Both the position numbers and the translations under genes were made by a program. Below are positions 6,558 to 7,269 of a DNA stretch of 10,497 nucleotides, piece after piece. Below the pieces are notes generated by a model, which saw nothing but the letters and a program-made list of their open reading frames with translations, did not search any database and was not told the DNA's origin. Numbering within the stretch: the stretch's first letter is position 1; each line of letters begins with the position of its first letter. The DNA lies in IMG/VR virus record IMGVR_UViG_3300035698_031582; one strand, 5' to 3'. This stretch comes from a virus.

Positions 6558-6923
6558 ATGCTAAGACAATATATGATAGCTAAGATACATGGTGCTATTG
6601 TGACTGATGCTAATTTGAATTATGAGGGAAGTATTACTATTTCTAAGACAATGTTAAATGCTGTTGGAATTGAAGAGTATGAAAGAGTTCAAGTGCTTGA
6701 TATTGATAATGGTGAACGGTTAGAGACTTATGTTATATCAACAGAAGAAGATAGGCATATTTGTTTGAATGGTGCGGCTGCTCATAAAGTTGATATTGGG
6801 GATAAGATTATAATTATTGCGTATGGTTTTATGGATAAAGCTAAGATAAAGTTTAATCCTAGAGCAATTTATTTAAGTAGAACAAATAGAATAAAGGAGA
6901 CGGTTGATTATGACAAAGATTGA
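6558..6923 (+). CDS. panD: aspartate 1-decarboxylase (pyruvoyl-dependent, PanD)
   Basis: Aligns end to end with E. coli PanD. MLRQYMIAKIHGAIVTDANLNYEGSITIS matches [29 protein letters not shown], including the catalytic Lys9 and the Gly24-Ser25 self-cleavage site. ERLETYVIS matches KRFSTYAIA (Arg54, Thr57, Tyr58). LNGAAAH and GDKIIIIAY are conserved. Length is 121 aa against 126 aa for E. coli. Confidence 0.88.
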   Translation: MLRQYMIAKIHGAIVTDANLNYEGSITISKTMLNAVGIEEYERVQVLDIDNGERLETYVISTEEDRHICLNGAAAHKVDIGDKIIIIAYGFMDKAKIKFNPRAIYLSRTNRIKETVDYDKD

Positions 6924-7269
6924 TACGAAGGTGTTTGAGAGAGAAGTAAGTGACGCATCTGTTAAAATGGTAAGAAGATTGGAAAGTTTTAAGAGAGAGC
7001 TAGGTGAAAATGTAGAGGTAACGCCAAAGTTGGTTGATGAGTGTGTTGAAAAACTTCAGGAAGAAGTTAATATTTTTTGTAAACGTTTTGATGTTAGAGA
7101 TATACCTAAGGTTGGTAAACTTAGATTTCCACCTGATCCAAAAACAGCCGATATGTATGATAATTGTTATGTTGGGTATGTTGGTGAAGATGGGACTTTG
7201 GTTTTTATGGCTGAGGGGTTGATGAAAAAAGTGATAAAAAGATTTAAAGAAAAATGTAAAAATAAATAG
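6910..7269 (+). CDS. hypothetical protein, ~119 aa, overlapping the panD 3' end by 14 nt
   Basis: ATG 6910 (alternative TTG 6904 as in the ORF track), RBS AAGGAGA (6893-6899). Translation MTKIDTKVFEREVSDASVKMVRRLESFKREL... has no recognised family. The overlap suggests translational coupling to panD. Stop TAG 7267-7269. Confidence 0.5.
   Translation: MTKIDTKVFEREVSDASVKMVRRLESFKRELGENVEVTPKLVDECVEKLQEEVNIFCKRFDVRDIPKVGKLRFPPDPKTADMYDNCYVGYVGEDGTLVFMAEGLMKKVIKRFKEKCKNK

Follow-up and report, generated by a model that had tools for sequence, protein, structure and literature searches.

Aspartate 1-decarboxylase, PanD, supplies bacteria with beta-alanine, a precursor of coenzyme A (CoA). The IMG/VR virus record IMGVR_UViG_3300035698_031582, a stretch of 10,497 nucleotides (nt) referred to here as the window, carries an open reading frame (ORF) at 6558–6923 which, judged by its sequence, is a genuine, full-length PanD and probably a catalytically competent one. 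The chemistry of PanD is textbook knowledge; the novelty lies in the setting, in which a canonical PanD is kept by a phage-like lineage within a block of RNA-repair and nicotinamide adenine dinucleotide (NAD)/ADP-ribose genes. The simplest explanation, which has roughly an even chance of being right, is that the window PanD serves as a phage auxiliary gene making beta-alanine for pantothenate and CoA synthesis in the host.

Identity and Catalytic Residues of PanD

The encoded proenzyme matches the Pfam family PF02261 (Asp_decarbox) over profile positions 1–114 of 115 (E 6.9e-41, 139.2 bits against a cutoff of 25) and 25 distinct PDB sequences of PanD, the best being the Mycobacterium tuberculosis enzyme 2c45 (E 3e-23, residues 1–111). 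In an alignment of the window enzyme with those of Escherichia coli, M. tuberculosis and Bacillus subtilis and with 11 database homologs, the invariant positions comprise K9, H11, Y22, G24–S25, R54, T57 and Y58, together with N71 (E. coli N72), G72, A73 and A74 of the NGAAA motif and I85 (E. coli I86). The self-cleavage site, Gly24-Ser25, corresponds to the codons at 6627–6632. Position 12 is occupied by Gly, where most homologs have Arg. The original prediction had described a canonical PanD with Gly-Ser, Lys, Tyr and Arg conserved, and the full-length Pfam alignment, in which neither Gly-Ser nor Lys9 is lost, bears this out. On these residues, the protein is predicted to self-process and to be active.

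In family membership, processing site and catalytic and substrate-binding residues the window enzyme resembles bacterial PanD of the M. tuberculosis, B. subtilis and Clostridia type. It shares 44% identity with the B. subtilis enzyme, 42% with that of M. tuberculosis and 36% with that of E. coli, while the best cellular homologs (Hathewaya, Oscillospiraceae, Planctomycetota and others) are 50–58% identical, the Clostridia and Oscillospiraceae reaching 56–58%. The exact window PanD sequence has no database record. Unlike the bacterial genes, the window gene lies on a phage-like element, has no pan genes nearby and forms an operon with RNA-repair and NAD/ADP-ribose genes.

The Conserved Gene Block

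The immediate surroundings of panD, in which the end of the RlaP gene and the start of panD are 7 nt apart, are as follows:

4525–5532, + strand: NADAR-YpsA (SLOG) fusion, 335 amino acids (PF08719 E 3.6e-26; PF06908 E 2.5e-15)
5561–6550, + strand: RlaP-family nucleotidyltransferase (PF10127 E 1.6e-22; phrog_388 E 4e-64)
6558–6923, + strand: panD, aspartate 1-decarboxylase proenzyme, 121 amino acids (PF02261, PDB 2c45, invariant catalytic residues)
6894–6899, + strand: Shine-Dalgarno sequence AAGGAG for ORF119, within the 3' end of panD (sequence inspection)
6910–7269, + strand: ORF119, a conserved orphan protein of 119 amino acids (homologs at 81%, 41% and ~24% identity)
7279–7307, + strand: sigma70-type promoter TTGACT-17-TAAGAT, TG-extended (scan; same position in L084 and L085)

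The gene thus sits among RNA-repair genes, as originally described, and NAD/ADP-ribose genes. Two distant relatives have the block NADAR / SLOG / RlaP / PanD / ORF119 in collinear order. The first, L085, is a 14.8-kilobase (kb) Joint Genome Institute (JGI) contig with the order NADAR, YpsA-SLOG, a helix-turn-helix gene, RlaP, PanD (119 amino acids), an ORF119 homolog (P0122) and a 71-amino-acid ORF; further on it carries an RNase T-like exonuclease, an HNH homing endonuclease, a glutamine-dependent NAD synthetase, an AAA ATPase, a PHP protein and another nucleotidyltransferase. The second is represented by the groundwater contigs L089 and L090, in which NADAR, YpsA, RlaP and PanD (125 amino acids) are followed by a 165-amino-acid ORF, an ORF119 homolog (P0126) and a T5orf172 gene. 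The PanD-ORF119 pair is also found on a third contig, L084 (555 bp; P0121), with DNA 79% identical to the window. RlaP lies directly upstream of PanD in the window, L085 and L089. PanB and PanC domains are absent from the window, L085 and L089, in agreement with the earlier claim that this PanD stands outside any pantothenate operon.

By tblastn, L085 is collinear with the window across all shared sequence, with identities of 35% for the CCA-adding enzyme (the first gene of L085), 37% for ORF 2327, 31% for ORF 2975, 54% for NADAR, 48% for SLOG, 46% for RlaP, 58% for PanD, 41% for ORF119 and 31% for ORF71. Against L089 the corresponding values are 40% (ORF 3314), 53% (NADAR), 52% (SLOG), 54% (RlaP), 41% (PanD) and ~24% (ORF119). 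PanD is therefore the best-conserved block protein relative to L085, where its neighbours range from 31 to 54%, and its catalytic residues are intact in both L085 and L089. Being so well conserved in the one and still intact at 41% identity in the other, the gene appears to be under purifying selection instead of having been picked up recently by accident. On this comparative sequence evidence, PanD is a stable, conserved member of the gene set of the lineage.

Directly behind ORF119 a sigma70-type promoter recurs in three genomes, with TTGACT-17-TAAGAT in the window and TTGACA-17-TATAAT in L084 and L085. Its conserved position argues that PanD and ORF119 are the last genes of a unit transcribed by the host polymerase; in the window the same promoter heads the next unit, made up of ORF71 and a vault-protein gene. 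Promoter-like and terminator-like sites in the window are not enriched over shuffled sequence, and for that reason weight is given only to the promoter which the relatives share.

Two differences in gene form accompany this block. NADAR and the YpsA-type SLOG are one protein in the window and two adjoining genes in L085 (3356–4323) and L089 (2156–3201). The RlaP gene of L085 (4954–6984) contains an insertion of ~350 amino acids, which has Cys as its first residue, closes with His-Asn ahead of a Cys and includes a LAGLIDADG-like segment; these sequence features suggest an intein that carries a homing endonuclease.

PanD in Other Viruses and in Biosynthetic Clusters

A profile-based scan of IMG/VR identified 46 contigs with PanD. 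Genes for PanB or PanC lie beside six of these loci (tblastn with E. coli PanB and PanC as queries) and were not found at the other 40 within the fetched DNA of at most 8 kb per side, figures that include some short contigs and possibly host flanks within IMG/VR records. In a curated phage collection, most tblastn matches to PanD were unannotated contigs resembling host DNA. The credible PanDs of isolated phages number two, gp87 of the Rhodococcus/Gordonia phage Jace and panD of Achromobacter phage 2-1, the latter located between RNase H and DNA polymerase. Overall, viral PanD lies mostly among nucleotide-metabolism or replication genes, the usual site of phage metabolic genes, and the full catalytic set is kept in almost all cases.

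Viral PanD is rare and scattered, yet recurrent. The earlier description of a phage PanD as unusual holds with regard to its rarity, and full-text literature searches found no paper discussing one; it does not hold with regard to recurrence, given the 46 IMG/VR contigs and two isolated phages. The window PanD joins a small set of phage-encoded PanDs that the searched literature does not discuss. The homologs in Jace and Achromobacter phage 2-1 are likewise solitary, without panBC and among replication or recombination genes, but they are only 32% and 43% identical to the window enzyme, respectively, and their neighbours differ. Since both phages are cultured, the function is cheap to test.

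The enzyme of Achromobacter phage 2-1 (L082, 5989–6384), along with those of L077 and L078, keeps Gly-Ser, K9 and Y58 and carries R54H and A74P/A75P. With the residue for binding aspartate's distal carboxylate thereby altered, the substrate may differ in this group; the window PanD, in contrast, is fully canonical.

Several viral settings of PanD can be distinguished by their neighbours. On the GC-poor contigs L048–L068, PanD has a conserved C-terminal extension of 60–80 amino acids and often adjoins a beta-eliminating lyase of the tryptophanase / tyrosine phenol-lyase family, with a dihydroorotate dehydrogenase near (for example L050, 6632–8513). L046 and L047 combine PanD with two radical SAM enzymes and a giant glycosyltransferase. 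In L045, L049 (7152–9697) and L070 (7079–9613), an Amidoligase_2 gene lies upstream of PanD and a ThyA-like enzyme, DnaE and an HD 5'-deoxynucleotidase lie downstream, with DnaB and primase also nearby. By analogy, the amidoligase-PanD-ThyA-like layout recalls base hypermodification clusters and suggests a base modification derived from beta-alanine or aspartate.

L036 and L044, contigs of 174 and 214 kb, encode an adenylosuccinate-synthetase (PurA-like) homolog two genes downstream of PanD. In L036 (10157–11296) this is a short PurA-family protein of 379 amino acids with an intact GDEGKG motif, and likewise in L044. Neighbour-joining trees group the window PanD with the PanDs of these two contigs at 46% bootstrap, while the next-deeper grouping varies with the distance method. 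The phylogeny called for in the original prediction therefore yields a grouping with two large-phage PanDs; deeper placement is unstable, and given this and the weak bootstrap no donor is claimed.

A further comparison concerns P0002, P0005 and P0020, which are among the nearest database matches (53–57% identical) and have an 'NYEGS' motif and a short C-terminus in common with the window PanD. Like it, they lie outside pantothenate operons, but in clusters resembling those of nonribosomal peptide synthetases and polyketide synthases (NRPS/PKS), adjoining AMP-binding, carrier-protein, ketosynthase and radical SAM genes, of which the window has none. In such clusters beta-alanine presumably serves as a building block, not as a CoA precursor. 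Such short PanD paralogs inside NRPS/PKS-like clusters of uncultured bacteria (loci L029, L031 and L032) imply natural products containing beta-alanine.

Proposed Function

In the mechanism proposed, host-type sigma70 promoters would transcribe PanD as the next-to-last gene of an operon with NADAR-SLOG and RlaP. Self-cleavage of the proenzyme at the Gly24-Ser25 bond would generate the pyruvoyl cofactor, and the mature enzyme would decarboxylate free L-aspartate to beta-alanine and CO2. The additional beta-alanine, produced in the infected cell outside host control, could then enter the host PanC/CoA pathway and sustain pantothenate and CoA levels. By established PanD enzymology, a substrate suited to the pyruvoyl site with K9, R54, T57 and Y58 must have its alpha-amino group free and possess both an alpha-carboxylate and a distal carboxylate. 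The presence of all catalytic and substrate-binding residues points to free L-aspartate as the substrate of the window PanD. In support of the auxiliary role, three divergent genomes retain PanD in the equivalent place, all without a pan operon. If the boosting of a CoA precursor is true, pantothenate and CoA join the host pathways propped up by phages.

Several points weigh against this explanation. As neither the window nor its relatives show any other pantothenate or CoA gene, the step from beta-alanine to CoA is purely our inference, and the literature searched supports no role for a phage PanD. That PanD stays next to RlaP, NADAR and SLOG may point to a use of beta-alanine specific to this module. 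In addition, PanD is flanked by an amidoligase and a ThyA-like enzyme in one viral lineage, and P0002, P0005 and P0020 occur in biosynthetic clusters in place of a pan operon.

The adjacency and the other settings favour a different use of the product, in which beta-alanine from PanD would be built into a phage-specific modification or conjugate of a nucleobase, nucleotide or RNA end and not be a source of CoA, possibly with the neighbouring RlaP, NADAR-SLOG and ORF119 proteins as partners. This is rather unlikely on the present evidence, in spite of a gene order held in three divergent genomes with RlaP always just upstream of PanD. Thymidine hypermodification does use free amino acids or amines, and amidoligases co-occur with the genes responsible (PMC8989533), which lends interest to the viral contigs where PanD is flanked by Amidoligase_2 and a ThyA-like enzyme. 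However, the three genomes are collinear over all of their shared length and the synteny is confined to a single lineage, so that the order may reflect common descent instead of functional linkage. RlaP, NADAR and ORF119 were absent from the 46 other viral PanD loci, as was PanD from 28 viral RlaP loci. Furthermore, RlaP adds one or two nucleoside monophosphates to damaged RNA 3' ends, a reaction in which no amine substrate is involved (PMC12776372), and no beta-alanine ligase or transferase is recognisable in the window. Literature searches on beta-alanine hypermodification and on CoA-depleting defence returned nothing relevant.

A narrower form of this idea, less probable still, would make PanD a working part of a counter-defence operon, with beta-alanine consumed on a nucleotide, an NAD/ADP-ribose derivative or an RNA end and not on CoA, for example through an amine conjugation that marks, repairs or protects its target. 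The CCA-adding enzyme, RlaP, NADAR and SLOG belong to the RNA-repair and NAD-centred counter-defence repertoire of jumbo phages, and the neighbours of the window PanD are the same gene set (PMC7824862). The survey of those modules makes no mention of an aspartate decarboxylase (PMC7824862), which here is a conserved member of the block. Were beta-alanine to be used in some way other than for CoA, this would point to new nucleic-acid or nucleotide chemistry, hinted at by the amidoligase/ThyA-like contigs and the biosynthetic-cluster PanDs. If this were broadly true, phage PanDs with amidoligase, ThyA-like and PurA-like genes beside them would supply nucleic-acid modifications that contain beta-alanine and are yet to be discovered.

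Phage or Cellular Origin

The auxiliary role in CoA supply presupposes a phage, and the window likely derives from a phage lineage, probably that of an uncultured, large phage. The CCA enzyme, NADAR and RlaP of the window have PHROG matches, and L085 adds an NAD synthetase that matches a phage family over its full length, together with the HNH homing endonuclease already mentioned; L089 contributes its T5orf172 gene. The gene set held in common with jumbo phages points the same way. The window genes are tightly packed on a single strand, with tight or overlapping junctions. A point on the other side is the lack of capsid, portal, terminase and tail genes in the window and in the contigs of its relatives (10.5–14.8 kb); with no structural gene in any contig of the lineage, the phage origin is inferred from the remaining gene content and its layout.

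The same lack would fit a bacterial chromosome, a plasmid or another mobile element on which PanD is a housekeeping enzyme away from panBC, as in E. coli K-12, where panD is apart from panBC. The best matches of the vault-protein gene downstream of ORF119 are likewise bacterial chromosomal genes. Such an origin is improbable all the same. The long ORFs are all one-stranded, and the guanine-cytosine (GC) skew of +0.28 to +0.61 is positive in each 500-nt bin of an AT-rich window (GC 29–38%); L085 (0.37) and L089 (0.33) also show strong coding-strand skew and low GC content. Homing endonucleases and an intein-like insertion occur in the relatives beside the PHROG matches of the window. The ORF119 family and the RlaP subgroup are absent from 185,579 GTDB species genomes by profile scans, and none of the window proteins has a close cellular homolog, the best match of PanD being 56–58% identical. 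The vault-protein homolog occurs, in addition, in 'uncultured phage' genomes of 462–735 kb.

Searches for closer viral relatives gave little. The profile of the RlaP subgroup recovered nothing from IMG/VR, megablast with the window as query gave no match among 50,697 phage records, and single-sequence scans of PanD against IMG/VR and of the CCA enzyme against JGI metagenomes were also without a match.

ORF119 and Its Junction With panD

The stop codon of panD, TGA, lies at 6921–6923 and the ATG of ORF119 at 6910, confirming the coordinates of the 14-nt overlap first noted between panD and the neighbouring unassigned gene. An AAGGAG motif (6894–6899) precedes this ATG by 10 nt, and a GGAG-type motif is similarly spaced in L084 and L085. 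Translational coupling of the two genes, which had been proposed from the overlap, is not supported by the comparison with relatives. The genes are separated by a 5-nt spacer in L084, where PanD ends in ...IAYGLWSMAKDGKLSEPKVICLDEENKIKER and a stop codon, by 16 nt in L085 and by the extra 165-amino-acid gene in L089. With the overlap not conserved, an obligatory coupling is not conserved either.

ORF119 is a real gene, as homologs at 81%, 41% and ~24% identity exist. A word-indexed search of 5.8 billion proteins retrieved one homolog, P0121 (81% identical). Two more, P0122 (E 2e-16) and P0126 (E 9e-4), came from an exhaustive profile search with HMMER across 1.84 billion representatives, which also yielded three long repeat proteins regarded as spurious. 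Scans with the family profile recovered only the L085 contig, with zero matches in IMG/VR or GTDB genomes, and no significant Pfam, PHROG or PDB sequence match was obtained, permissive thresholds included. The homologs are seen only downstream of PanD, in all four genomes that have them. A first AlphaFold 2 model built on two sequences had a predicted local distance difference test (pLDDT) score of 58 and was not used; the fold modelled afterwards consists of a bundle of three helices and a small three-stranded sheet.

The activator PanZ/PanM is, to our knowledge, the only known partner of PanD, and the enzymes of B. subtilis and M. tuberculosis self-process without it. The original prediction had raised a PanZ/PanM-like role for the downstream protein. 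The E. coli and Salmonella pair shares its chemistry with the window, where a small gene likewise adjoins panD. PanZ/PanM is a GNAT protein with an RGXG CoA-binding motif (PMC3398536); ORF119 has neither GNAT domain nor RGXG motif, and its helical-bundle model is of another fold. That ORF119 nonetheless activates or regulates the phage PanD in the manner of PanZ/PanM, the overlap ensuring matched amounts, has in its favour the overlap itself and the confinement of its homologs to positions downstream of PanD, and is very unlikely given these structural differences, the loss of the overlap and the intervening gene in relatives, a divergence (41% and ~24%) that far outpaces that of PanD (58% and 41%), and a window PanD nearer to the B. 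subtilis and M. tuberculosis type, which matures without PanZ, than to that of E. coli.

Further Features of the Window

The remaining features lie at either side of the block:

1–2244, + strand: CCA-adding / poly(A) polymerase-family enzyme with HD domain (phrog_2244 E 5.5e-21; PolyA_pol_RNAbd; HD)
2257–2286, in the gap 2245–2326, + strand: candidate sigma70-type promoter TTGCAA-17-TATAAT (scan only)
7317–7532, + strand: ORF71, a small conserved protein (first gene past the conserved promoter)

Frame 1 of the CCA enzyme is open over bases 1–66, reading ...RRRDFTINS... (EEDSRRRDFTINS). With its frame open from the first base, the gene is truncated at the edge of the window, leaving the catalytic head domain outside, on the upstream side. 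The candidate promoter behind it may be the start of the operon which ends with panD and ORF119. ORF71 is 31% identical to a 71-amino-acid ORF at the equivalent position in L085, L086 and L087. Scans of the window for tRNAs and Rfam families were empty.

A full-length homolog of the eukaryotic major vault protein (MVP), ~900 amino acids in length, occupies 7520–10256 (MVP shoulder domain E 9e-27, plus Vault_3). At the GGGGG run 8654–8658 a one-base frame change divides the gene into two overlapping ORFs; a sequencing error, a pseudogene or a programmed +1 shift could account for it. Deletion of one G from the run gives a protein that aligns over 96–99% of its length at 41–44% identity (E ~1e-204), and thousands of bacterial MVP homologs align with the restored sequence. 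Its best homolog was considered as a marker of a related phage and rejected, the context being bacterial. Two 'uncultured phage' genomes (735 kb and 462 kb) carry uninterrupted copies, and the huge phages that bear the vault protein have a GC skew of 0.12–0.14, unlike the window, L085 and L089.

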